A stretch of 63,939 nt of DNA, the filler included, from Licmophora abbreviata (Eukaryota): the NCBI GenBank assembly GCA_900291995.1. It is 17 parts of 17 records of this genome, joined end to end, with 100 filler letters (N's around TTAATTAATTAA, not from the genome) between each part and the next. Parts side by side here need not be neighbours in the genome. Positions count along the whole stretch, not along the records: positions 4,355 to 11,552 come from OLMU01004334.1; 16 more parts are not named here. One strand, given 5' to 3'. Shown here piece by piece: positions 2,000 through 39,200 of the stretch. The translations under genes and the position numbers were made by a program. Each line of letters opens with the position of its first letter. Within the stretch, counting starts at the first letter, position 1. The notes under the pieces were generated by a model. It made no database searches. It was given only the letters and a program-made list of their open reading frames with translations, and was not told the origin of the DNA.

Positions 2000-2753
2000 C
2001 AAGGCGGGGGAGGGGAGGAGCGTGTGACTGAATCAAATCGGCACGCTGGTTTGAGGCGGATGAATCTTCGTGTGTGTGTGTGTACTGTGAAACGAGTGAA
2101 CCATGGGGGAAACCGCATGTCACATGGCATGTGTTAGCTAGTGAAAATCGGCAGTGTGGCGTTGTCGATGTGCGTACCTTCCATAGGATGCGCCATGGCA
2201 GTGCTGACGATGGACTGCAAATAGGTCATAAAGAATTCATAGTTTGAATCTCGTTCAAGAGTACCTTGTTCCGTACCGGAAGTGTCGGTGATTAAAATGC
2301 ATGGTGATATAATTACAGTTACTCGCTAGTCTCATCCGATCCTTGATTCAGTCACTTCGAAGAAGCACCTTTCGTGCTTATTGTCCTGTTGTTACTGCAG
2401 TTACCATTCGCTCCAAAGAAATAGGCTGGCATTTAGATTCTATTCGATTTGCTCCTCTTTTCTATGTACCCGATAGGGCTGGCTCGCTCGTACAAAATGT
2501 CCATCAGTACCGGTGATCCACGAAATAAACCGGCGAGAGATGCAAGATGAAAGATGGCGTCTGTAGCAGGTACCGGTACAGACTGTCTGTACCTCCGCGT
2601 CGACAGATTTCAGATTGAAGATAGCTTCGTTCGAAAGATCGCTTCGAAAGCTGCTTGCAGCCGCCTTCTTTGTCATTCAGCGTTCTGATCGAGACCAATC
2701 ATACGCCAGCACCCCTGACACCTCGCAAGAACCAAAGCCATCCTGTGACCACC

Positions 2754-3984
2754 ATGAAGCTTTCTTCTGTCCTTCTTCTCGTCGTCTTGGGTTGTCCTGA
2801 TGGAGCCCGCGGGGGGAAAACCCCCCTTCGCCGCCTCGCGGGAGTTCGAAAGAGCAATCGAGACATTGATGAACCGAGACAAGCTGATGAACCGGCAGAA
2901 GCAGAAGTCGGTTGTGCGGGCCCCTTGGAACCACCGTTGCCTGGGGTCATGGCTGGGAAAGACATACCCAGGATCATCCTTGCCCAAGACGTTGACTATC
3001 CCCCCTATTCTCAGCTCGGTCCTGCCGAAGAAGACTTTCCAGTCTCTGGATTTGGAGCCGAGTTCGCCATGGGTCTTGAGGACGTTTGCGAAATCGACAT
3101 TACAGTCGTGCAAACCCAATGGGCTCGTTGCTGGAACAGTGATCGTATTGGAGAAGGCTTGGGCGCAGGAGAGTATCATGGATGCACCACCTACACGCAT
3201 GCCAGTGGTGTTCGAAACCGTTACCTCGAATTTTCGACTCCCATTCTGAACGACAACAAGGCGGCTGGTATCTTGACGCGCTTGGATGCTTCTGGCCAGC
3301 CTATCATCGACGGAAACTCGAACCTGGATGGTGTCAAAGTCGTGGATGTGGTGGGCTTTGCCCCGACGGCGGACAATCTTGCCTTGATTGACAACGCGTG
3401 CACTGGGGAAAAGTTCACTGGCTACGAGATTGTAGCCCCGACGACAACCACAGACTACCCTAACGATGATGCTCTCAATACTTTGTTGTCGGGCGAAGCC
3501 GATGCCATGTGGGTTTGTAAGTGACATTCGGGATCTCGGCATACTCCCTTTATGAAAGTGATATCACTAACCGCTTCGTCATGTACCTCGTATCGTTTTC
3601 TTCACAGACGCTGATCAAGCAGAACGCTTTCAGTGTGCCAACAACGAAGGTGAAACGCCGTGGAACTGTGCCTTGTGGGATAAGCTTGGAGTGGACTTTG
3701 CGTATATTCAGACAGGCAACTTTGGTTGGTTCCGCGGAGGCACGACCTTGTCAATTAGCAAGAAGGGAGCCAGACTGACTGAAATCCTGAATCCCTGCAT
3801 CGATGCCTTTATGGAAACGGAGGCTTACTATGACTTGTGCGTCAAATATGATTTTGTTGGATCCTGCTTTGAGAATGAATTCTTTCCAGAGACGATGGCG
3901 ACAGAAACGCCTTTGTACGATACGCCCACAAACGAGCTGACCTCCAGCTGTAGCGATGGATATTGTGCTTGCCCTGCCCGTTGA
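2754..3984 (+). CDS. Secreted periplasmic/solute-binding-protein (type 2 fold, SBP family 3-like) protein; exons 2754-3516, 3608-3984
   Basis: Signal peptide MKLSSVLLLVVLG; QDVDYPPY and RNRYLEFSTPIL resemble amino-acid SBP motifs. Intron GTAAGT 3517-3607 gives ADAMWV-Y-ADQA. Confidence 0.7.
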
Positions 3985-4354: not shown

Positions 4355-4476
4355 GTGTCCACTACAGTCTCACAGCATAGCATCCGCATCGATCGCCTCT
4401 GCACTGTTTCCTGCCTTCGCCGCCGATTGAGCCTACGCCTTCGTTCTCCCACCCAACCTATATTCAGTATCGTACC

Positions 4477-4955
4477 ATGTCCGCAGACGAAGTAGCGAAT
4501 GCGTTTGTGCAACATTTCTATCAAGCCTTCGACAGCAATGCCGAAAGTCTTCGCGCGCTCTTCGTAAGTACTGAAACGCCGTAGAACTGTACTCGACCCT
4601 CTCGCTGTGCTGCTCCCATGGCGAAGTCGTCTGACTCGTTGCCCTGCCCTGGTCTGCCCTTTCTGTTCTCTCCCAGCACAACGACTCCATGATGACGTTC
4701 GAAGGTCAGCAGCTGCAAGGAGCGGACGCCATCGTGGGCAAGCTCGTGAGCGTCGGCAGTGTCAAGCACGTTGTCAAGAGCATCGATATCCAGCCCACGC
4801 ACACGGCGGGCACTAGCATCTTGATTTTCGTCACGGGCACCGTTCGGATTGGAGGAGATGGCGAGATCCACTTTTGTGAATGCTTCAATCTGGTGAGCTC
4901 TTCGCCTGGGAACTACTATGTCCACAACGATGTCTTTCGATTGAACTATGGGTGA
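4477..4955 (+). CDS. NTF2: Nuclear transport factor 2; exons 4477-4563, 4677-4955
   Basis: MSADEVANAFVQHFYQAFD...SMMTFEGQQLQG...YYVHNDVFRLNYG; intron GTAAGT..CAG 4564-4676. Confidence 0.95.
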
Positions 4956-5280
4956 GAGTCAGGCTACGACGGGAAGCGAGGCCCAGAGAGAGGAGGAGGA
5001 ATTTGGTCCCTCATCAGTGGAGAGAGCCAGTCAGTCACTCCGAGACTGGAACAGACGGACGAGCGTGTAGCGCGAACGGACAAGCTTCGGTATCGGGAAG
5101 TCGATTTTATGTAGCCTAGCATGCTAGCGAAAGAGACGATGTTCACATTTCTCTTGCACTTTCGAATCCGTTTCTACACTACTCGTAGACCAGTTCGCTC
5201 GACTCTTGTACCTCGCGCGCTAGTACTGTCTAAAGCAGTACCAGGTATGATACACTGTGAGAAGTATTGCCGATTGCGCA

Positions 5281-6151
5281 CTAGACTTGCTGCTGATTGG
5301 CTGGATTCTCGGGACTCTTCTTCCACAGCTGCCAAATCTTCTCCTTGTATTGCGACAGTCTCAGTCCTGGCGATTCCTCCTTGATCACCGGCAGCATACG
5401 TTCCTCAAACTCCTTGAACAAGGCCTTTGCAGACTTGGTACTCACCGCCACCACTGCCGCCGACTGTCATACTCTCCAATGCTGCGTCAATGCCACTCGC
5501 TCCTTGATCCTCTAGCGCCTTGTTCACATGTCGCCCCGCAGCATGGACACCCAACATGCCTTGCGTGTTGAGAAGCAGCGGATCCATCGACTTTTCTTGC
5601 TCTTCGACACGCCTCCGTGCTTCTTCTTCTTGCTGTTGGAGTTGTTGTTGTTTCTTCTTTTCTAATTCTCGTTTGGCCCGCGTCTTTTTCTCGGCCGTCT
5701 GGACGAGTGCATCTGCCAAGAGCGAGAGGTCGTCTTGCTTTTTCTTGTTCTTTTTGGCCGACCGAGTCGTTTTGATCTTTGCAGTAGTAGTAGTAGTAGT
5801 AGTAGAAGTAGCTATGGCCTCTTCGGCAGCCAAGAGTTCTTCTTTTTCGCGTCGTTTGCGTGCCGCCTCGTCCGCCTTGGCCGCTGTACAAGGAGCGTGT
5901 TTACGAGTAAGAAGATGTGGGATACAAAACAAGGCTGAGTATACTCGGTACGACCAAGAGAGTGAGTGCGTCCTGCTTCCGTACTCACCGGCCGCTTCTT
6001 TTCTCCCAGCACCTCGTAGATCGGAGCCCTTTTGCCACTCGACTGCTTCTTGTTGATCGCGTTGGCGTTCTTCCGCGGCTTGCTTTTGTGACTTCTGCTC
6101 GGCCTTGCGATCTCGGCCTGCCTGCGCTTTAGAATTCGTTCGTGGGGGCAT
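5281..6151 (-). CDS. CCDC124: Coiled-coil domain-containing protein 124 (CCDC124/Oxs1/Lso2-like); intron 5884-5988; apparent +1 frameshift near 5435-5465
   Basis: N-terminus MPPRTNSKAQAGRDRKAEQK..W.KG, then SGIDAALE. The conserved tail KALFKEFEERMLPVIKEESPGLRLSQYKEKIWQLWKKSPENPAN lies in a different frame and ends at TAG 5281-5283. Confidence 0.85.
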
Positions 6152-6172
6152 TGGATCGATTGGATGAATGAC

Positions 6173-6208
6173 AATGGATGGATTCAATCAGAATGGATGG
6201 ATTCAATC
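6173..6208. repeat. 17-bp direct repeat AATGGATGGATTCAATC x2 just upstream of the CCDC124 start
   Basis: Copies at 6173-6189 and 6192-6208. Confidence 0.85.
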
Positions 6209-6472
6209 TCAATCAGTCGGTCCTGTCCGCAATGAATGAGGATTCTTTTCTCTTTGCGGTGTTTATTTCTGGTACGAAGCACAGACTTTTGCGGGTTCCT
6301 TCGACTAGTTCGACTATCATGTACACCGCAGTACTCACTCTACGAGGGGTGCCCGACATCCATCCAAACCTTTTTTCAGCAAAAGATCTTTCACACAGCA
6401 CCACGATACGACAGGCCAGCCAGGTATCCCACTTGAGTCTCTCGTACAACAACAACAACAACAACAGCAAGA

Positions 6473-7674
6473 ATGAGCGGACGAGGACGAGGATTCTCAC
6501 CCGGCGGACGAGGAGGAGGAGGCCGCGGTGGCTTTGGACGCGGTGGAGGTCGCGCATTCTCTCCCGGTGGCTTTGGACGCGGAGGAGGAAGGTGCGTCGT
6601 GTTTGCTGTTTTTGAGACTTTCGTCAGTGAGCGCGACTCACTCTTTTCCCATACTCTCCTTTTTTAGAGGAGGCGGTCGCGGAGGCCGGGGTGGTCGCGG
6701 AGGACGTGATGGTGGTGGTCGAGGAGGAGGTGATGGTGGTGGTCGCGGAGGACGTGGTGGGAGGGGAGGAGGACGTGGCGGAAGGGGCATGAAGGGTGGC
6801 ACCAAGGTGGTGCTGGAACCTCATCGCCACGAGGGCATCTTTGTCGCACGCGGCAAGGAGGATGCTCTGGTCACACTCAACTCGACTCCTGGAGTCGCGG
6901 TCTATGGGGAAAAGCGTATCAGTGTGGATGGACCGCCTGGGGCCGATGGGAATGCCACCAAGGTCGAGTACCGTGTATGGAATCCGTTCCGATCCAAGTG
7001 TGAGTTTTTGAAACGCTGTGTGTGACACAAAAGAGAGGGAGGGGGCTACTATGTTACACGTGCGCTGGAATCAAGGACTCACCCTATCCTCGCAATCACA
7101 CACCCTCTTTCGTGAATCCAATTTTACTTGTTCAGTGGCAGCCGCTGTCTTGGGCGGTGTCGATGACATTTGGATCAAGCCGGGCAGCAAGGTGCTCTAC
7201 ATTGGCGCTGCAGCCGGCACTAGTGTCAGTCACGTGTCAGATATCGTGGGCCCCTCCGGTGCCGTCTATGCCGTCGAATTCTCGCATCGTCCGGGACGCG
7301 ATCTCATTAACGTTGCAAAGTCTCGCACCAATATCATCCCCATTATTGAAGATGCCCGGCATCCACTCAAATACCGCATGTTGATTGGCATGGTCGACAC
7401 GGTCTTTGCCGACGTCGCGCAGCCAGATCAAGCCCGTATTGTGGCATTGAATTCTCATTACTTTCTAAAGAACGGTGGTCACGCTGTGATTGCCGTCAAG
7501 GCCTCTTGCATTGACAGTACGGCGGCGCCGGAAGCCGTCTTTCGGAGAGAAGTGAGCAAATTGCAAGAGGAAAAGTTCAAGCCACTGGAACAGTTGACAC
7601 TGGAACCCTATGAACGAGACCATGCGGTCGTCATTGCAGAATACAGGCCGTCGAAAAAGAGCGAGAGTCAGTAG
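6473..7674 (+). CDS. NOP1: Fibrillarin (rRNA 2'-O-methyltransferase); exons 6473-6591, 6668-6999, 7136-7674
   Basis: RGG/GAR N-terminus, [15 protein letters not shown] after splicing, [32 protein letters not shown]. Confidence 0.98.
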
Positions 7675-8366
7675 GAGGGACGGGACAAGTCGAGTGCTCT
7701 TGCGTGGTATGGTCCATGTCTATACCAGTAGCTAGATTGCGCCGTATAGTAACTCCCACTGGTTTGTTGCCGGGTATTTTGTTTATGCGATCAAGTGGTA
7801 TCATGTTGACTATTTACACAGCGAGAGCTACGATCAATCGTCATGAGGCTGCCCAATCATGTGCTCGTTGAGATCGATCGATCCGGCCGCCCAGGCCAGT
7901 AGGACTATCAAAATGGCGATCCCATGCGAGCCTTCCAGTGAGAGTACTAGAGAATCGTAAAACAGATATGTAGCTACTGTCACGATGCATGTGCAAACCA
8001 CAAATCGGAGAGTGATGAAAGGCATGGCGAACGCCGGTTTGTTGGTCCACGTTTGCATTCACCATGGCATCAGCAACGCACGCCCTCCTCTCGTCCACGT
8101 CGTCCGTCCGACGCGCGTCACAAGTGCCGCCGACCACCAGCTATGACACCCGGGTACCGGCAGACCTAGTGTAGGATAGACAATCAGCCCGTCGATCACC
8201 ACAGTACTGGTAGCCCCTCCCTTATAAGACGTCTGGCATACCTGCTACTCGAAGTCTAAACTGCCCTAGTTTATGAGCTTCTTTCGGTCGACCGTATATG
8301 CCCGCGAGGTTCACCGATTCGACCTTGCGAATCCTACGAATAGTATGATACCGCACCTATGGGCCT

Positions 8367-10316
8367 CTATTGATCGTCGTCTTTGTCGTCATTCGGTGGC
8401 TTGTTCTCGTCTGCCAAATCGAAAAAGTAGGTAACTACGCCAAAGTCAGAACGCCGCGTATATCGAATTCCTGATTTCTTGAAAATGGCATTCATACCCG
8501 TATTATCCGCCAGCACATCAGCCTTCAATTTGCAAAGCCCTTGCACTCTTGCTATCTCCACCAGCCTCTGAAACAAGTACGACCCCAGGCCTTCCGTCTG
8601 CCAGTCATCGCGTACCTGAAATGCCATTTCAGGAATACTACCACTACTGCTCTCTCGTGGATCACTGACCCATTGCGCAATTCCGACTATTTCGTGTTGG
8701 TACGCGTCCGGCGGGCAAAGTACGACGATGGCCATATCACTCGAGTAGTCCACATCGGCAGTCCGTTGTAAAATGCGTTGCGGCATGGATCGCAGCTTTC
8801 GGAAGTAGCGAAGATATACCGAGTGGTCAGAAAGTTTGTGAAAAAAGTTGCGCAATTCATCTTCATCCGTTGGCTTGATGGGTCTCACGAGAACCTTCCT
8901 CTGTTTCCTCGTCGTGTGAAAGCATTCAAACTCAACCGGATAGTTGCTACCAATCGATTTTCCAGGCTGAGACTGAGATACATATTGATGCTCCTTTGCT
9001 TGGCCAAGCAACTCTGGCCGAAAGTCAGGGTGAGCAATATCAATCAGTGCCAAGCATCGTTCCCTAATGGACTTGCCGTAAAGATAGGCAGTGCCGTACT
9101 CCGTCACGACGTACTCAACATCCGACCGGGTGATCGATACTCCCGTGCCAGGCGGTAAAGCAAATACGAGGTTCGATCTACCTCGGAGACTCTTGGAGGG
9201 GAGCATGACGATAGCCTTCCCGCCGTTGGAGTATTGCGAACCCCGCACTGAGTCTTCGTCGCTCCACACGCCGCCGTAAAACTTGTGAGCAATCGAGTCG
9301 GTCGCAACCTGACCAGTTAAATCAACCTTGAGGGCAGCAACAATGGAGATGAGATTGTCAATCTTGCCCAAAACCAGTGGATCGCAGACAAAACTGGAGG
9401 GGTGAAACTCAATAACCGGGTTTCGATCTAGAAAGTCATAAAGCTCTGAGCTTCCATGAGCCTGGGACGCGACAGAGCGCCCCGTAGTGAGCGTCTTGAA
9501 CTTGTTGTTGATGACACCTGTTTGATGTAATCGAAACAATTCTTCAGTAAGTAGGTCCGTGTGGAGACCCAGATCTTTGCGTTGGTCCAGAAACGGAAAG
9601 ACAACATGGACTCGTGGGGTCACACCGAACCGCAGCGTGGCTCCATCCGGGATTTCTTTGACGACATTTTGTCCAATAGCATCTCGAACTTCAATAGGAT
9701 AATTTTGAGAGTTGAAGAGACTAGGCCAGAGTTGTTCGGTCGTTTTGAGGGGTTCATCGTGCGAGATCCACCAATCGATTTGAGAAACAGATAGTTTCGA
9801 CGGCCCTTCGGTCCATGGCATGAACTGATTTACTTCGGCAATCACGACGCGAGCATGTCGAACGAAATCAAGAGTAGTTTCCACCCCCATGCCCAAGCTG
9901 ACAAAGCCCTTGTGAGGTTTGGTAACCTTGATTATGGCAACATCGACGTGCAGCTTGTGTTCGCTGAGGAGTCGAGGTATTCTTGCGATAGAAATCGGTT
10001 TGTAGTCCTCGAGTCCCTCCTGCGGGCGGTCTGCATCTGGCCTGAAGTATCCGCCTTTCGTAAAGGAATAGAACGACACAGTCCGGAACCGATCAATGTT
10101 CTTGGACAGATGCGGTAGGTTTCCTCCAGGGATCATTTGAATGATCTGAATGTTCTCAAGCATGGCACTATCGACCATGTGTTCGAGTGTCGCGTCTGCC
10201 GTCGCCGCGCAGCTCCCGATGTAGACGGAGCTGCCATTCGGAATCTTTTCATCGACCGTTTCCAGCCGGATCTCTTTCGCAGACCACAACGACGACGATG
10301 ATGCTCCTTGACTCAT
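8367..10316 (-). CDS. Acetyl-CoA hydrolase/4-hydroxybutyrate CoA-transferase-like domain fused to a C-terminal GNAT (Pat-like) acetyltransferase; intronless
   Basis: SLGMGVE, VIAEVNQFMP, DLTGQVATDS, VVTEYGTAYLYGKSIRERCLALIDIAHPDFR, followed by VRPIKPTDE, YLRYF, VDYSSDMAIV, AFQVRDDWQTEGLG and NTGMNAIF. First ATG is at 10316. Confidence 0.9.
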   Translation of the reverse strand: MSQGASSSSLWSAKEIRLETVDEKIPNGSSVYIGSCAATADATLEHMVDSAMLENIQIIQMIPGGNLPHLSKNIDRFRTVSFYSFTKGGYFRPDADRPQEGLEDYKPISIARIPRLLSEHKLHVDVAIIKVTKPHKGFVSLGMGVETTLDFVRHARVVIAEVNQFMPWTEGPSKLSVSQIDWWISHDEPLKTTEQLWPSLFNSQNYPIEVRDAIGQNVVKEIPDGATLRFGVTPRVHVVFPFLDQRKDLGLHTDLLTEELFRLHQTGVINNKFKTLTTGRSVASQAHGSSELYDFLDRNPVIEFHPSSFVCDPLVLGKIDNLISIVAALKVDLTGQVATDSIAHKFYGGVWSDEDSVRGSQYSNGGKAIVMLPSKSLRGRSNLVFALPPGTGVSITRSDVEYVVTEYGTAYLYGKSIRERCLALIDIAHPDFRPELLGQAKEHQYVSQSQPGKSIGSNYPVEFECFHTTRKQRKVLVRPIKPTDEDELRNFFHKLSDHSVYLRYFRKLRSMPQRILQRTADVDYSSDMAIVVLCPPDAYQHEIVGIAQWVSDPRESSSGSIPEMAFQVRDDWQTEGLGSYLFQRLVEIARVQGLCKLKADVLADNTGMNAIFKKSGIRYTRRSDFGVVTYFFDLADENKPPNDDKDDDQ

Positions 10317-10640
10317 GCTCGACTTTTTTGTGTGTTTTCTTTTCACCGTTTCACTATTTCTAACTATTTCGACACTCTCACAGAAATGGCGGGAAGCGCA
10401 CCTCCGTCCGTCTGCCGGTCGTGAGCTCACATATCGCCGCCGGACGTCATCTCAGCCGCCCGTTTCAAAGTGAAAAGAGCCGAAATTCGAAATTCAGAAC
10501 CATCATCACCGACGACGAGGACGAGTGCATTCATTGCATTTCTGCCTCGGCAGAGACCCAAATTGGATCACATTCATGCTGTAGCGCTACCTTGGAGACA
10601 CAAGGATTCGCGAGAGGACCCATAACTTCTCAAAAGAATC

Positions 10641-11396
10641 ATGACTCCTGCTGAAAGCAGCCAGAAACGCAAAGCCGCAGATGCAGCCACCAACGACGAT
10701 GGAGCGATGACGTTGTCGGGAGCTTCGAACGCAAGGAAGAAGAAGGCGAAAACAACGAACCACAATGGTATTGGAACCCCGGCAGCGGAGGCCTCCACGT
10801 CACAGGCTTCTGCTCAGACAACCCCTGGCGATGGCACGTACGAGGCGCTCTCGCTGGCAGACATTCAAGCACGGATTCTGTTGCTCTGTGACCGCGTGCC
10901 GACGATACCGCAGAACGGACTAGCCGGTGCTACTCAGATACTGAGTTTTGCTACCGCCCTTCAGTCAACGCTGGAGGAGTTCTGGCTGTTGTGTGGCTGT
11001 GTCAATGCCGCGACGTATACTTGGGGAACGGAACGAAGTGGGGCGGCTGATCAGAATTTGTCGTTGCTTTCCAATGAACTTACCAATTCGCAAGAACAGT
11101 TGAATAGTGTTGTGACGCCGCGATTGACCAATGTTCTTGCGCCAGTCGTTGATCTGGTAGTTGAAAAAATTGTTACTACTACCGATTCTAACTCGGCAGA
11201 AACTAAACATCATCACTACAGGTCCCAAACAGTTGACCCGGAGTTTGTGCAGCTGTGTCGAGTGGTTCTATGTCGGAACGCCAAACTGCTGCGACAAGTT
11301 ACGCTATCGCATCTTCACAAGATTAATACGTGCATCAGTGACTATCTAGAGGCAAAACAGAAGGACAATTCACACGATTCGAGGTTTGCGTACTGA
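10641..11396 (+). CDS. Conserved-looking hypothetical protein (251 aa, basic NLS-like N-terminus)
   Basis: ATG-initiated ORF with a globular-looking C-terminal half (ATYTWGTERSGAADQNLSLLSNEL), divergent from the upstream gene. Confidence 0.7.
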   Translation: MTPAESSQKRKAADAATNDDGAMTLSGASNARKKKAKTTNHNGIGTPAAEASTSQASAQTTPGDGTYEALSLADIQARILLLCDRVPTIPQNGLAGATQILSFATALQSTLEEFWLLCGCVNAATYTWGTERSGAADQNLSLLSNELTNSQEQLNSVVTPRLTNVLAPVVDLVVEKIVTTTDSNSAETKHHHYRSQTVDPEFVQLCRVVLCRNAKLLRQVTLSHLHKINTCISDYLEAKQKDNSHDSRFAY

Positions 11397-11858
11397 CAAA
11401 CAGTCGCGCGTGCGGGTGTTGGCTGCCTTGTAGGATGCGCACAGGGTTGCAGCTGCCGCAAGGACTCTGTTGCTGACTCTGCTGCTACTTCAGGTGCCAA
11501 TCAAGAAAAGAGGAAGAAACCTGGGAAATTTGGCATGGCCAAGCGAACTATTNNNNNNNNNNNNNNNNNNNNNNNNNNNNNNNNNNNNNNNNNNNNTTAA
11601 TTAATTAANNNNNNNNNNNNNNNNNNNNNNNNNNNNNNNNNNNNNNNNNNNNTCTAATAGAGCGCTACTGTAAGACAATATTGCAGTTTGAAAACACACA
11701 CAAAAAGCATCTATTCACGAGCCAGGAGCCATACTCAGTAGTACTCGGTGTATACTTTGCACGACGACAAGGCTCACGAGTCCAAGCCTCCCCCTCTCAT
11801 AACCTTTTATCATTTGCTAGCTAGCAAGCTTTGCAACGATTCTGCATAGCCACACCAC

Positions 11859-28386: not shown

Positions 28387-31064
28387 ATGAGTGCAGAAAA
28401 GAAAGCCTCTGTCGCAGAGGCCGCAGCCCTAGAGGACACGGACGAGCCGTCCTTGTCGAAGCTTCTTGGCGCGCTGGCCATGGGAGCTCGTGCGGTCCAC
28501 AATATCCCCTTGGACGACGACTTTGACTATCAGTCTTCCTTTCCAGAGTTCTCTCAGCTCGCCAAGGAGACGAACGCTTCCTTGGTCCAGGTCCTGGGAA
28601 TTGCCTTGCAGGATATCGAAAGCGACGATCCGATGCTCTGGGACAAATGCGCCGATACCTGCGAGTCCCTCTTGGAACAGGCCGAGTCTTATAGTACTGC
28701 CGCAGGCAGCACCGTTGAACCACAAACTTTGCAGAACTTGTCTGCAATGGCTCGACAGAAAGCCAAGGGCGGATACGGGCGCATGATGGAGGGGATCGTT
28801 GACATGGAAAAGCCACAGGAGACTTACAACATTCAAGTCCAGAATGATCGCACTTTGCCATTCGTCCCGCGCGTCCATCCCAACAAGCCATACTCGAAAG
28901 TTCCCTTGAACTTGGAACTTAAGGATGGGCACGGACTTGAGTCGCGCATTTACGGAAGAACTCGTGCCATCGCTGCCAACGCAATTGCGCCATCCCAGCA
29001 CGTGTCGCATGTCTACGAAGAAGAACTACTCTCTCTAAAGTATTTGCCCTGGCAACTCAAGGCACCCGACTCTAGGCCTCCCAGGATTGTCGAGACGCCT
29101 GTCGAACATCTCATGGCCAAATGGGTCGATACCAAGGAGGAGCTAGCAAAGCTCGCCCATCGCTTGGAGGCTACCGATCGCGTCGCCGTGGATCTGGAAG
29201 CACACTCCTATCGGAGCTTCAGCGGACTCACTTGTCTCATGCAAATGACAGTGCCTGTTCAGGACGGCGGTCATGAGAATTTTCTTGTGGATACACTGAA
29301 GCTCTGGCACGATATCAACGCGTACTTGGCTCCAATGTAAGTACCGACATTTGGTCGTTCGTGTTAGGTACTGAGAAAAACAATGATGTTGAATGAATCT
29401 TTTTGTCGGTCTCGATGTTCTTTTTTACAGCTTTGCAAATCCCAACATACTCAAGGTAATGCATGGAGCAGATTCCGATGTCCAATGGCTGCAGCGGGAC
29501 TTTGGTATCTACGTTGTCAACATGTTCGATACTGTCCGGGCCGCACGTGCCTTGCCCCATCATCCCGCGGCGGGTCTGGCGCACCTGCTGAAGCACTACG
29601 TTGGCTTCGACGCGGACAAGAGCTTGGCTCTATCAGACTGGCGACGACGACCATTGCTTGACGAAATGAGATCTTACGCCATTATGGATACTCATTACTT
29701 GCTGGACATCTACGAGCATCTGATGTTTGAGCTGGAGCAACACCAGGAAACAAGTGTCGAAAAGGTACTTGACGACAGTCGAAATGTCTGCTTGATTCGC
29801 TACGACAAAGAGCCTTTTCAGCCCGATGGTTACAAATTGATTCGACGGAAGCCACGAAATTCGCGTTCGGAACCGATGCAGCAACAACAGGTGATCGCCA
29901 GCTTGTATGAGTGGCGTGACGCCACGGCTCGCGCTTGCGACGAGTCCCTCCACTACGTATGCGCCAACAAAGCTCTTCTTCGCATTGGCGTGGCATGCCC
30001 TACGACGGTGGCATCTCTGCAGTCCCTCTGTAATCCCATGCCGCCTCTAATGATGAGATTCTCGCAAGAAATTCTTGGTCGCATCAAACGTTGCCTTGCA
30101 GCCGATGGCGATGACGACGATGCCGAATTGGCGAGTCCACAGCGTGGAATAGCAGGAGCACCGTCATCGGCTTTCTTCAAGCCGGCTGAAATCGACGACG
30201 ACGTCGAAGAGCGTGGCGACAACGGTATTCTGAGCCCAGTGCTTCCAACGGAAGAAATGTACAAGCAAGCTGGGTGGATGACCCCACAAGTCGGTGACGT
30301 CGTCACGACCACGACGGACGAAGATGACGGAGACTCGTCGTCGAAGCCACGCAAGCTCCTCGTTGTTGTTGACGCGAACAAAGGTTATCTGTCCAATGAG
30401 TATACGGCACACAGCATAGGAATGGGGAACAGCTGGAGTAAGAAGGCCCATAGGGCGGATGGCCTTGGTCCCGCTCGCGCTGCAGGCCGAGAGGAGGATC
30501 ACGTCGACGAGCAGGCCAAGCAAGCTCAACTAAATGCCGCCCGAATCCGAAGCAGACTATCTCAAGACGAGGCCCTTCTGGGCCCATCCTCGCCCGCAAC
30601 GGAGCTTGTTGGTGACAGGGCAGGCGATGTCAGTACCGCAAATGCCATATCTAAAGTCGCAAACGTTGATGATGACAGTGACGAAGAATTTGTTATTCCC
30701 AAATCGGTCGCAGAAATTTACAAGATCAGCAACCAAAACAGACGGAATCGGAACTCTATCTCCCCCACAAACTTGGAAAGGGGCGGGATCGCTCCCGAGC
30801 AGATGGATGTCGATACACCTGATGGCGCCAAAGCGGCGATTTCTGACAGCGGGTACTACGGAGGCGGGATCGGGGGAAAGCGTCAACGCACCAAGTCCGA
30901 TGCCGGCGAGGGAAAGAGCGGCGCCTCTTTACGCGAGGAAAACATCGAATTTATGAAGGGGCTGGGTTGGATCAAGAGCAAAGAAGAGCTAGAAGCCAAG
31001 ATGAGCCGACCACGCGGCGAAGAAGCTGCCGCCGAGAGTGCTTGTGATGGGAGCGCTGACCGTG
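28387..31064 (+). CDS. RRP6: Exosome exonuclease RRP6/EXOSC10 (PMC2NT, DEDDy exonuclease, HRDC); intron 29337-29430; 3' end lost in the gap
   Basis: VAVDLEAHSYRSFSGLTCLMQ, KVMHGADSDVQWLQRDFG, DWRRRPL, DTHYLLDIY, WRDATARACDES. Confidence 0.95.
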
Positions 31065-31164
31065 NNNNNNNNNNNNNNNNNNNNNNNNNNNNNNNNNNNN
31101 NNNNNNNNTTAATTAATTAANNNNNNNNNNNNNNNNNNNNNNNNNNNNNNNNNNNNNNNNNNNN

Positions 31165-36244: not shown

Positions 36245-39200
36245 TCAAAAGCCCGCGACGCTATCCTCGAGCATTTTTATCTCCTTCGCGGCAATCTGCA
36301 GTTGGTTGAAAAGCGCTTCCATTTCCGCGTCGTCGTCGCTCATCGTTCCTGTCGACGCCAGTTCGCGGAAGTACGACATGCAACTACTTTGATCGTCATC
36401 TTCTGTAGTAGTGTCCGAACGATCTTCTTCTCTATCGTCTCGTGCGTCGCCATCGATCGATTCGAACCGACTAGATGGACTGTCCACTAACTTCATCGAG
36501 ACGTTGTTGGCTGGTGTCTTAACGTTTTTCAACTGTTGCGCAAAGTCCATATCCAGGAATGTTTCCAAGTTTTGAAGCTGCGCAAATGTCATACTTGGAG
36601 CTCGAGCGCTAATGTCGGTCCGTGTCTCCTGTTCGAACAGTCCAACTGCCTCTGTCGGAATCATGAAAAGCTCGCATTCCTGGTTCATACAAAGATCATC
36701 TTCGATTATTTCGTCCTTTTGCAGGCAATCTCCACAACCAGAACAGGGACGCAGCTTCGAGGTTCGAGTATTGGTCTGCTCTGATACCGAGCGGCGTTCT
36801 GAATTCTCCAACGAGCGATCTAACGTTTTGAGCGACTCCAGCGACTCGTACGTAAGCTTCCTTCCGGGTCGACCAGGAGATCCGCTCTCGGAACTGGCTG
36901 CCAGATTCAGTTGTTCGTCAAACTTTCTGAGAAAGTCTTCCGACAGAGGCACGGCGGTGCTGTCATGATCCCATTCATCGACATACGAAGATGCCTCCGC
37001 CTCGCGTTGATCCCAGGCGCTGAAGGTCATAAACCTGTCTCCGGAATCCACACAAGGCGATTCCACTGAAAGTGACTCAATGTTGTGTGAGATATCAAAA
37101 GAAGCGATGTCGCGTTCGATACCTTTCGGTGACATTGAACGAGGTTTCATAGAATACCATGAGACCTCTTCTTGAGTATCGACGAGATCTTGGTCTTCCC
37201 CTCTTACATCGAAGTGCGTCGTGTTGGAAGTTGAAGTCTGGATTCCCTCTGCTTCTTCTCCTAGTGAGACCTCTTCTTGAGTATCCACGAAATCCTGCTC
37301 CTCCCCTGTTGCATCGAAGTGCGTTGTATTATAAGTTGAAGTCTGGGTTCCCTCTTCTTCTCCTAGAACATCGTCTGACGGCCCTCCGCTCGCGATGAAG
37401 TCAAGTACTGCATCCTCGTCGCCAATATCCAAGTCGTCAGGGACGGGCATATACCACAGTTGGGACGCAGGGCTTCCGTATGGATTTGGGAGATGGTTCT
37501 CTACTTGCGAGTTTTCATGATGAATCATTGATGTCAAACCTCTCGAGTCGGAGACTGGGGACAATACTAGAATCCCCGAGCTTGGTTTGTTGACGTGGGA
37601 ATTGAGAGGCAGCGAACTAGGCGTACGAGGAGCTGCTGTATCTCCACTCCCCGAGTACGCTGCATCACTGCAAAACGCACACTCTCTTTCACCTTCAGGA
37701 GCCTGCATAAGCCGCGACTCGCATTTCGGACAGGTCGCATTCACCAAAAGCCAACCATCAACGAGGCGCTGATAGATCGCATTACTGGCTTCGATGTCGC
37801 TGGAAAGTACAGGTAATACAACTGGTGAGTTCCATAGCACAAGCAAACACAAAATGAGATCAAGACAGGCGAATGCTTACGTTTCTGGCTTTTCGTTGCT
37901 ATCATGAGAATGGAGGAAGAGCTGCGCTGTACCTTCGACATCAGGGTTTGAGGACGAATTAATATCCTCTGTACCGCTAGGCTTGACACTGCCAGTACCT
38001 GGACTTTGCTCGGCCTCCGATTCACCGGTATGTTCGAAGGCATCAAAAAGATCCGTGCGTTCCATGATACGAACCATCCCATCTTGAGGCGCCACGACGA
38101 GTTTGTCCTGGATCAGCTGCGGAGGAGTTGTTGAACCAAGGTTCGCAAGGCTCGATATCCCTTCAAACTCAGGGACCGCCGTCTCCTTTGATGTATCCAA
38201 GGCATCCATTTCTGCAACGAGTTTACTCTCACCTTCATTTTGGTGATTCTCATCCGAGCTCTCCACCTGTCTCGCCGAGCTCTTCGGAGTCGTTCGTTTC
38301 TGATGAGCTCGCTTTTTTGCCCTTTTGTGGACATTTGGACACACGACGCAATGTTGCTGTCCGTCTTTTTCCATCAGTGGCATCGCACATCGATCACACT
38401 GCGACTGTGTAAGCGTGAATCCCTCACCGAGCAACCGTCCGATGGCCTTCGTTGCGATAGCTCGGCTAAAAATGGAATGACGGCAAACAATGTCAGTGAG
38501 CACATCGAACAAGGAATTGGCACCAGGCAGTAGGCCCTATCGAACGTACGTTTCTTCGTATTGTGCAATTATACCATCCTCTTCGTCGCGTGTGTTCACA
38601 GTCGGATCGTCAACATCGACGCGTATTGTAGGGCAACGCTTTTCGCTGTGTGCGTTTCGCTTCTCATCAGTCTGCTCGCACACCTCGTCCTCCACCGAGT
38701 CCTTACCCCGAACACTTTCCGCCGAGCTGCTTTCTCGCACACGGTAGTAGTCCGCTAGGGGATCGGGCTTGGAGAGAGTCGGCGACAGACCCTGAGGGCG
38801 TGGACGCTGTCCGATCTCTGTCTCATGAATAGACGATTCGACGTCGGACGGCTCGGGGTCGCCTCCCGTGGCCTCGCTTTTGTTTTCTACTTCATTCTTG
38901 CTGTCGTTCACAGAAACTGGTTCGACCGTTGGCTCATTCAGATCGGACTGCGCTTCTTTCCGAGCAGGCTGCTCATTGTCAAGAATCACCACTCCACGTC
39001 TCCGATTCGTCTTTCCAGATTCCGATCCCTCGGCAAGTCGAATTTCGATCCCCTCCCCAGCACCCTCACTCAATGATCCCATTGATAGCAACCCGTTAGA
39101 AAGATTCAGGAGTTGCTGATCCTGATTACGATCAACCCCGGCTTCCGAAACGGCGAACACCTTTCTCTTTTCACGGGACGGTGGCTGGGTTCTGGTATCG

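Follow-up and report, generated by a model that had tools for sequence, protein, structure and literature searches.

An intronless gene of the pennate diatom Licmophora abbreviata encodes a family I coenzyme A (CoA) transferase fold with an apparently rebuilt active site, fused to a Pat-type GNAT acetyltransferase domain that is predicted to be intact. The gene lies on the minus strand at 8367..10316 of the window, a stretch of 63,939 nucleotides of assembly GCA_900291995.1 made of 17 joined parts that are not necessarily genomic neighbours (positions 4,355-11,552 are OLMU01004334.1), and consists of 649 codons and a TAG stop codon. By analogy with characterised Pat enzymes, the product may be a lysine acetyltransferase of Pat-like type whose N-terminal domain is not catalytic but binds a ligand, a reading that falls slightly short of an even chance. 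The remodelled transferase site came from marine bacteria and is older than the arrival of the gene in diatoms.

The minus-strand open reading frame (ORF) runs uninterrupted over 8367..10430, with its first ATG at 10316 and the TAG at 8367-8369. Because bacterial homologues align with residues ~11 to ~640 without gaps that would require splicing, the coding region is taken to be intronless, as a sequence-only reading of this DNA had stated. The same reading had proposed that there is no targeting peptide, and the alignment is consistent with this: only 10 residues precede the conserved W11, where the bacterial alignment also begins, and an in-frame stop codon is present 5' of the ATG.

Residues 1-445 (8982..10316, minus strand) form a 4-hydroxybutyrate-CoA-transferase-like domain, and residues 472-640 (8397..8903, minus strand) a Pat-type GNAT domain; the intervening linker (residues 446-471, 8904..8981, minus strand) was delimited by the secondary structure and predicted local distance difference test (pLDDT) scores of a structure model and by the Pfam and Protein Data Bank (PDB) domain limits. 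The N-terminal domain is matched by the Pfam models AcetylCoA_hyd_C (PF13336, residues 288-439, E value 2.7e-49) and AcetylCoA_hydro (PF02550, residues 99-188, E value 8.6e-07), and by PDB sequences of 4-hydroxybutyrate CoA-transferases over residues 15-454 (E values 1e-73 to 1e-53, 29-35% identity). The C-terminal domain is matched by Pfam GNAT models (residues 475-617, E values 3e-05 and 1.1e-04) and by the GNAT domains of Pat and PatZ proteins in the PDB over residues 457-636 (E values about 1e-17 to 2e-11). An AlphaFold2 (AF2) model based on a 150-sequence alignment has a pLDDT of 94.2 and a predicted template modelling score (pTM) of 0.92, and Foldseek relates its N-terminal domain to 2oas, 3qli and 3gk7 (target template modelling (TM) scores of 0.88-0.91; for 2oas, TM score 0.91 and E value 8e-46) and its GNAT domain to that of Streptomyces lividans Pat (4u5y, target TM score 0.91). 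The two-lobed alpha/beta fold of CoA-transferases is recovered by AF2, Foldseek and Pfam PF13336 alike, and the fusion of a family I fold to a Pat-type GNAT, as first read from the sequence, is borne out by Pfam, PDB sequences and Foldseek. The equivalog model for butyryl-CoA:acetate CoA-transferase (TIGR03948) scores 180.2 bits against the protein, below its cut-off of 674.8, and that for acetyltransferase Pat (NF058543) scores 82.2 bits, below its cut-off of 460, with a match confined to the GNAT part.

HMMER alignments to PDB sequences place DLGLHTDLL on DLGIHTEMF, LRFGVTP on LQLGIGA and GGVWSDEDS on SGTGGQVDY; because these motifs pair in the printed alignments, the replacement of Glu by Asp and the changes in both glycine loops are in register, as the sequence-only reading had supposed. 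D254 (codon GAC, 9555..9557, minus strand) stands in the column of the active-site glutamate of family I CoA-transferases. The equivalent Glu249 of RipA forms acyl-anhydride and CoA-thioester intermediates, and a Gly-Val-Gly loop of RipA is described as a gate above the acyl-CoA pocket in the accessible portion of the structural report (PMC3180442). The counterpart of this gating loop and of the LQxGIG motif is LRFGVTP (residues 228-234, 9615..9635, minus strand), and that of the SGxGGQxDF glycine loop is GGVWSDEDS (residues 348-356, 9249..9275, minus strand); neither canonical glycine loop is present.

Residues were counted in a 346-sequence alignment that includes 84 members of the clade of Asp-type fused proteins (the D-clade; 44 bacterial and 40 diatom-type) and 101 Glu-type fused proteins. 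Position 254 is Asp in 44/44 bacterial and 40/40 diatom-type members, and Glu in 101/101 Glu-type proteins. The same division is seen at position 356 (Ser in 44/44 and 40/40; Phe in 98/101 Glu-type), position 382 (Asn in 44/44 and 40/40; Arg in 84/101), position 168 (Trp in 43/44 and 39/40; Arg in 74/101) and position 352 (Ser in 42/44 and in 32/40, with Thr in the other 8; Gly in 91/101), while position 229 is Lys or Arg in 42/44 bacterial and 40/40 diatom-type members. The Glu-type proteins keep G233 (93/101) and G351 (91/101). Replacement of G352 and F356 by Ser is common to diatoms and Asp-type bacteria; replacement of G351 by Trp is specific to diatoms (40/40), and position 231 is Asp or Asn in the bacterial members and Gly in diatoms. 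The N-terminal domain has thus lost its nucleophilic Glu, both glycine loops, F356 and a pair of conserved arginines (R168 and R382). Elsewhere it is well preserved: Glu-type proteins have 80 positions with a conservation of 85% or more, and 51 of these reach that level in the D-clade too, including H252, K274, N299, D332, Q336, R397, E406, R420 and R433. Because the replacement residues are themselves invariant, the transferase site appears to have been rebuilt rather than simply to have decayed, and because the defining catalytic residue was looked for and Asp was found in its place, the protein is evidently no CoA-transferase in the catalytic sense.

A nucleophile relocated to the nearby LTEE segment, raised in the sequence-only reading as grounds for doubt, was considered and rejected: position 258 is already acidic in Glu-type proteins (Asp in 85/101, Glu in 11/101), and position 259 is variable among diatoms. 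Coupling of the Glu-to-Asp change with replacement of Gln229 by Lys or Arg was likewise rejected in phylogenetically independent pairs (median p = 1), the raw counts being 108 rows with Asp and a basic residue, 136 with Glu and a non-basic residue, and 19 discordant; nor was coupling of Glu loss with loss of the Gly-Gly pair significant (median p 0.34).

The Asp might itself act as the nucleophile of a working CoA-transferase, with acyl-CoA made in situ and channelled to the GNAT domain for lysine acylation. Relatives with a canonical site fused to the same GNAT domain are common (Glu in 57/80 loci; 19/19 copies from the family Alteromonadaceae), and therefore the fusion may originally have served a catalytic partnership; one protein of the diatom clade, P0042, has Glu at position 254. 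This explanation is nevertheless very unlikely, as the replacement of Glu by Asp abolished transfer in the enzymes tested, according to the available text of PMC12400318, and the glycine loops are changed as well.

The main rival to a ligand-binding N-terminal domain is that this domain is an acyl-CoA thioesterase in which Asp254 activates water, making the protein a bifunctional hydrolase and acetyltransferase; the hydrolase might trim competing acyl-CoAs or limit local acetyl-CoA. CtfAB of T. melanesiensis becomes a hydrolase through the E46D substitution, as far as the accessible part of PMC12400318 relates, and that paper cites the same outcome of a Glu-to-Asp change for glutaconate CoA-transferase; an E249D structure of RipA (4n8l) exists in the same subfamily as the diatom protein. 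Position 254 is Asp in all 84 D-clade sequences and never a non-carboxylate, and the bacterial Asp-type members retain the G-V-G-S of the glycine loop. The engineered hydrolases, however, keep the rest of the site, whereas here the glycine loops, F356, R168 and R382 are also replaced and diatoms carry Trp at G351, and the engineered CtfAB hydrolase was only partially active (PMC12400318, same portion). On balance a thioesterase is unlikely.

In the GNAT half, the acetyl-CoA-binding motif VRDDWQTEGLG (residues 568-578, 8583..8615, minus strand) contains the Q-x-x-G-x-G pyrophosphate-binding loop (QTEGLG, residues 573-578), and NTGM at residues 605-608 provides the NxxM motif, so that both motifs persist as initially read. 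The presumed general base is E563 (codon GAA, 8628..8630, minus strand), which is invariant in one homologue alignment. Mycobacterium smegmatis Pat has Glu in this column in chains 4oll and 4orf but Ala in chain 4onu, which we take to be the catalytic-base mutant of that enzyme. Conservation within the D-clade is nearly complete (E563 in 81/84, Q573 in 81/84, G576 in 84/84, G578 in 83/84 and N605 in 84/84). The best sequence matches of the domain are PatZ, MsPat, MtPat and SlPatA, and it has the marks of a Pat-type enzyme: a GNAT fold nearest to characterised Pats, the catalytic Glu and a Q/R-x-x-G-x-G/A loop. All checkable catalytic and acetyl-CoA-binding features being present, the GNAT half is predicted to be intact. 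Its N-terminal partner, a CoA-transferase fold, is none of the regulatory domains of the described Pat types, which are ACD-like (types I and II), bind cyclic AMP (cAMP) or NADP or are of the ACT kind (type III), are absent (type IV) or are replaced by a tandem GNAT (type V), in the classification given by the accessible parts of PMC12184503 and PMC8556138. The protein would therefore be placed among Pat-type GNATs by sequence and fold, yet in no architectural type described in those parts.

The function that may be proposed is as follows. The C-terminal GNAT domain would be the working enzyme, since every feature of catalysis and acetyl-CoA binding that could be checked is present; the N-terminal domain, having lost the chemistry of CoA transfer, would be a non-catalytic module that binds CoA or acyl-CoA, perhaps mediates oligomerisation, and gates the GNAT domain; and the protein would acetylate lysines of metabolic enzymes in the cytosol. 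A precedent is PatZ: its acyl-CoA-synthetase-like domain is catalytically dead, yet it binds acetyl-CoA and stimulates the GNAT domain (PMC12184503 and PMC8556138, in the text available). The N-terminal and GNAT domains are equally conserved and both under purifying selection; their mean pairwise identities are 0.663 and 0.660 among 40 diatom-type proteins and 0.661 and 0.666 among 42 bacterial Asp-type proteins.

Several observations weigh against this proposal. The ratio of N-terminal to GNAT conservation is 1.00 in the D-clade versus 1.15-1.18 in the Glu-type and Gln-type groups. Family I CoA-transferases engineered from Glu to Asp are acyl-CoA hydrolases (PMC12400318, as accessible). The rebuilt loop carries acidic residues (SDEDS) and the site lacks two conserved arginines, which might speak against binding of polyanionic CoA at its former place. 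Among the 32 proteins flanking five bacterial Asp-type genes there is no metabolic partner common to the five loci that might hint at a substrate, and neither an acyl-CoA synthetase nor a deacetylase; two of the loci share an HrpB helicase, an ion channel and a DUF885 protein, and the other three differ. Stand-alone relatives lack the Glu about as often (16/42) as fused ones do, in a small sample that was biased by being gathered through similarity to the query and in which 5 of the 16 are fragments of D-clade fused proteins. The tests for correlated evolution of the active-site changes were not significant.

Some of these points would fit better with an N-terminal domain that is a pure scaffold for oligomerisation or substrate docking, with no small-molecule ligand and with the old pocket filled or in contact with protein. 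The 4-hydroxybutyrate-CoA transferases are obligate dimers or tetramers (RipA; PMC3180442, as far as its accessible text extends), the pTM of 0.92 is a sign that the modelled domains are held in a fixed position relative to each other, the acidic loop and the two lost arginines fit CoA binding poorly, and the regulatory domain of PatZ also shapes the substrate pocket, in the part of PMC12184503 consulted. Against a mere scaffold are the 51 of 80 family-conserved positions that have been kept, many of them polar or charged and unneeded for such a role, and the strict conservation of the residues specific to the D-clade, which suggests a defined new site. A pure scaffold is accordingly judged improbable.

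The remodelled site is shared with bacteria. The nearest non-diatom relatives are ~50% identical to the diatom protein, bear names that include Paraglaciecola, Alteromonadaceae, Aestuariibacter and a Desulfobacteraceae metagenome-assembled genome (MAG), and carry D254 and altered loops as diatoms do. In a quick IQ-TREE tree of 71 rows, diatom and bacterial Asp-type sequences form one clade with a support of 99 in the Shimodaira-Hasegawa-like approximate likelihood ratio test (SH-aLRT), and its sister group, with a support of 100, consists of Glu-type sequences, two of which bear the name SAR324; a second tree with metagenomic rows also recovers the D-clade (SH-aLRT of 99-100 over both trees). 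A FastTree analysis of 313 rows from which the three motif regions had been removed gives the D-clade a support of 100, with 102 tips of which 101 have Asp and one has Glu. Diatoms are sister to the bacterial D-clade members in the 71-row and metagenomic trees but nested inside them in the 313-row FastTree. Because Asp-type bacteria and diatoms share one clade with Glu-bearing sister sequences, the remodelling arose once, in bacteria, before transfer to diatoms. With the eukaryotic sequences grouped in one clade within or next to a bacterial one, and with eukaryotic DNA around the gene, the horizontal acquisition from bacteria that was proposed from sequence is upheld. Repurposing within the alga, by contrast, is not: the same substitutions in the closest bacterial homologues had been named as a finding that would count against the sequence-only reading, and as far as substitutions go they are there (D254 and S356 in 44/44), so that the change predates the transfer.

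The sole tip with Glu at position 254 is P0042, a protein of a Bacillariaceae sp. MAG, in which the Glu occurs as HNE and the other motifs (VKFGVS and GGIWSDIESLL) stay like those of the D-clade; its Glu may have reverted through one nucleotide substitution. A metagenome scan yielded no relatives of P0056, one of a pair of sequences (P0056 and P0105) that is sister to the diatom clade, and none of the 80 loci of a second metagenome scan, with an alignment as the query, fell near that pair in the tree.

The gene is a resident nuclear gene of pennate diatoms, as is concluded from its eukaryotic neighbours, its window-like G+C content (0.503, versus 0.507 for the window), its orthologues in named pennate diatoms and the likely presence of introns in some copies of the clade. 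Protein searches found homologues of 58-77% identity in genome assemblies and transcriptomes, including those of MMETSP; the named sources (Nitzschia, Cylindrotheca, Seminavis, Entomoneis, Synedropsis, Tryblionella and a Bacillariaceae MAG) are all pennate, and most matches are unnamed. Several metagenomic homologues occur as consecutive ORF pieces (three in L132-L134 and L136, four in L137, two in L135 and L128), with breaks near residues 335 and 398 in the four three-piece ones; L132 and L136 fall within the diatom clade near Seminavis-like sequences. These broken copies are likely to reflect introns gained after the transfer, frameshifts being the alternative. Contamination by bacterial DNA, or a recent unexpressed insertion, would explain the lack of introns in the Licmophora gene and its closest non-diatom relatives being bacterial, but is almost certainly wrong in view of the eukaryotic genes alongside (a split fibrillarin gene) and elsewhere in the window (RCC1, NIF and Rrp6-like), a G+C content equal to that of the window, orthologues in both MMETSP transcriptomes and genome assemblies of pennate diatoms known by name, and the probable introns of some diatom-clade copies.

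Outside diatoms the fusion is widespread. A pattern scan with one genome per species found it in at least 589 prokaryote species, and the best 80 loci come from Planctomycetota, Desulfobacterales, Chloroflexota, Bathyarchaeia, Thermoplasmata and Asgard archaea; the architecture, called typical of bacteria in the sequence-only reading, is so and extends to archaea. Position 254 is Glu in 57, Gln in 17, Asp in 3 and His in 3 of those 80 loci, and Asp in 106, Glu in 101, Gln in 20 and another residue in 20 of 247 full-length fused proteins. Switches between Glu and other residues occurred at least 23 times on the 313-row tree, and the catalytic Glu is apparently dispensable in the fused family. 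Among 180 matching plasmid records none covered at least 80% of the query, so no fused forms were found there. The two-domain architecture is already annotated in databases, where an automatic cluster label reads 'bifunctional acetyl-CoA hydrolase/transferase family protein/GNAT family N-acetyltransferase'; no publication characterising the fusion was found in a search of the main texts of open-access papers.

Two variants of the family differ from the Asp type. In the family to which the Paraglaciecola-titled genome belongs, 104/201 genomes carry a fused gene, which is of the Asp type in 6 and of another form in 98. This other form is ~35% identical to P0067; the 19 copies examined (19/19; L087-L105) are fully canonical, with HSE or HTE, LQLGIG and GIGGQVDF, and have the GNAT motif E-V-A-F...Q-G-K-G-M-A. 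The canonical gammaproteobacterial form is a candidate for a truly bifunctional enzyme, judging from these motifs. A Gln variant, mostly of Desulfobacterales-type genomes, has HTQ and the glycine loop GIGDQVDF in 17/80 loci, with a highly conserved N-terminal domain (mean identity 0.768); it is found at L029, L031, L035, L036, L041, L042, L046, L048, L057, L058, L063, L066, L069, L071, L072, L077 and L078, at about positions 8001-9800 of each where the full 8-kb flank is present.

Bacterial protein acetyltransferases are classed by which sensor domain is attached to the GNAT, and through these domains the acetylation of enzymes of central metabolism is coupled to acetyl-CoA, cAMP, amino acids or NADP+, according to the portions of the literature consulted. 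A domain derived from a CoA-transferase is absent from the lists of Pat regulatory domains in the accessible parts of a PatZ structure paper and a large review (PMC12184503 and PMC8556138), although marine and sediment bacteria and archaea commonly carry the fusion. It is conceivable, if rather doubtful, that the CoA-transferase fold constitutes a sixth, so far undescribed class of Pat regulatory domain present in hundreds of bacterial and archaeal species, that active transferases which supply or sense acyl-CoA have repeatedly become pure sensors of acyl-CoA or CoA (the Asp, Gln and His variants), and that one sensor version reached the ancestor of pennate diatoms. If the domain is regulatory, the family would represent a new class of input and a natural series from active enzyme to pseudoenzyme. 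Diatoms would then possess a transferred bacterial-type writer of acetylation and, in the cytosol of a eukaryote, a metabolite-gated switch for metabolic enzymes, and the diatom protein would be a candidate link between acyl-CoA pools and enzyme regulation in ecologically dominant algae. The main interest lies in the large uncharacterised prokaryotic family to which the diatom gene points.

The fusion gene is separated by a 324-bp spacer (10317..10640) from a divergent ORF (10641-11396, plus strand), and the spacer is presumed to be a bidirectional promoter region. On its other side, ~0.7 kb away, is a fibrillarin gene with a Gly/Arg-rich N-terminus (6528-7674, plus strand), which is split where its two frames overlap near 7018-7025; across the break the Pfam match goes on from profile position 55 to position 50, and a short intron is likely. 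Elsewhere in the window are RCC1, an NIF phosphatase, leucine-rich repeat proteins and a split Rrp6-like exosome exonuclease. The last of these (PMC2NT, 3'-5' exonuclease and HRDC domains; 28387-31120, plus strand) occupies two ORFs, its profile runs on across 29340/29393, and an intron is likely here also. Two adjoining ORFs at 36245-38512 (minus strand), each with an N-terminal Auto_anti-p27 (zinc-ribbon) domain, are either a tandem duplication or a single intron-bearing gene. At 2655-3542 are two ORFs of 289 amino acids that are nearly exactly antisense to each other, neither with a Pfam match.

Among known systems, the type I enzymes PatZ and Pat of E. coli and S. enterica (9it0 and 9isq) share with the diatom protein the C-terminal Pat-type GNAT domain (best match 8e-18) and the possession of a large N-terminal domain that comes from a CoA-handling enzyme minus a catalytic residue. 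The regulatory module of PatZ, however, resembles an NDP-forming acyl-CoA synthetase and is not homologous to the family I CoA-transferase fold of the diatom protein; full-length Foldseek TM scores are 0.20-0.27, and regulation is known for PatZ, whereas for the diatom protein it is suggested by analogy. The type III, cAMP-gated Pat enzymes of M. smegmatis and M. tuberculosis (4oll, 4onu and 4ava) have a homologous GNAT domain (5e-13 to 3e-12) that aligns with the diatom one at the catalytic Glu, at the QxxGxG loop and over the YxRF-type N-terminal helices, and their regulatory domain is also N-terminal, but it is a cyclic-nucleotide-binding domain of ~150 residues rather than a CoA-transferase-like domain of ~445 residues.

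AbfT, RipA and their relatives (3gk7, 3qli, 2oas and 3eh7) are alike in fold and homologous (1e-73 to 1e-53) to the N-terminal domain; the diatom protein differs from them in having Asp for Glu249, rebuilt Gly-x-Gly gating and GxGG loops, and a GNAT domain fused at the C-terminus. Engineered CtfAB E46D, glutaconate CoA-transferase beta-E54D and RipA E249D (4n8l) have the same change of nucleophile, but these are point changes in a site that is otherwise intact, whereas the change in the diatom protein is natural, ancient and accompanied by at least five further replacements at conserved positions of the site. The bifunctional family of the databases, abundant in Thermodesulfobacteriota, Planctomycetota, archaea and Alteromonadaceae, has the same architecture; many of its members keep the canonical Glu and glycine loops (57/80 loci), in contrast to the diatom protein, which belongs to the Asp-type clade.

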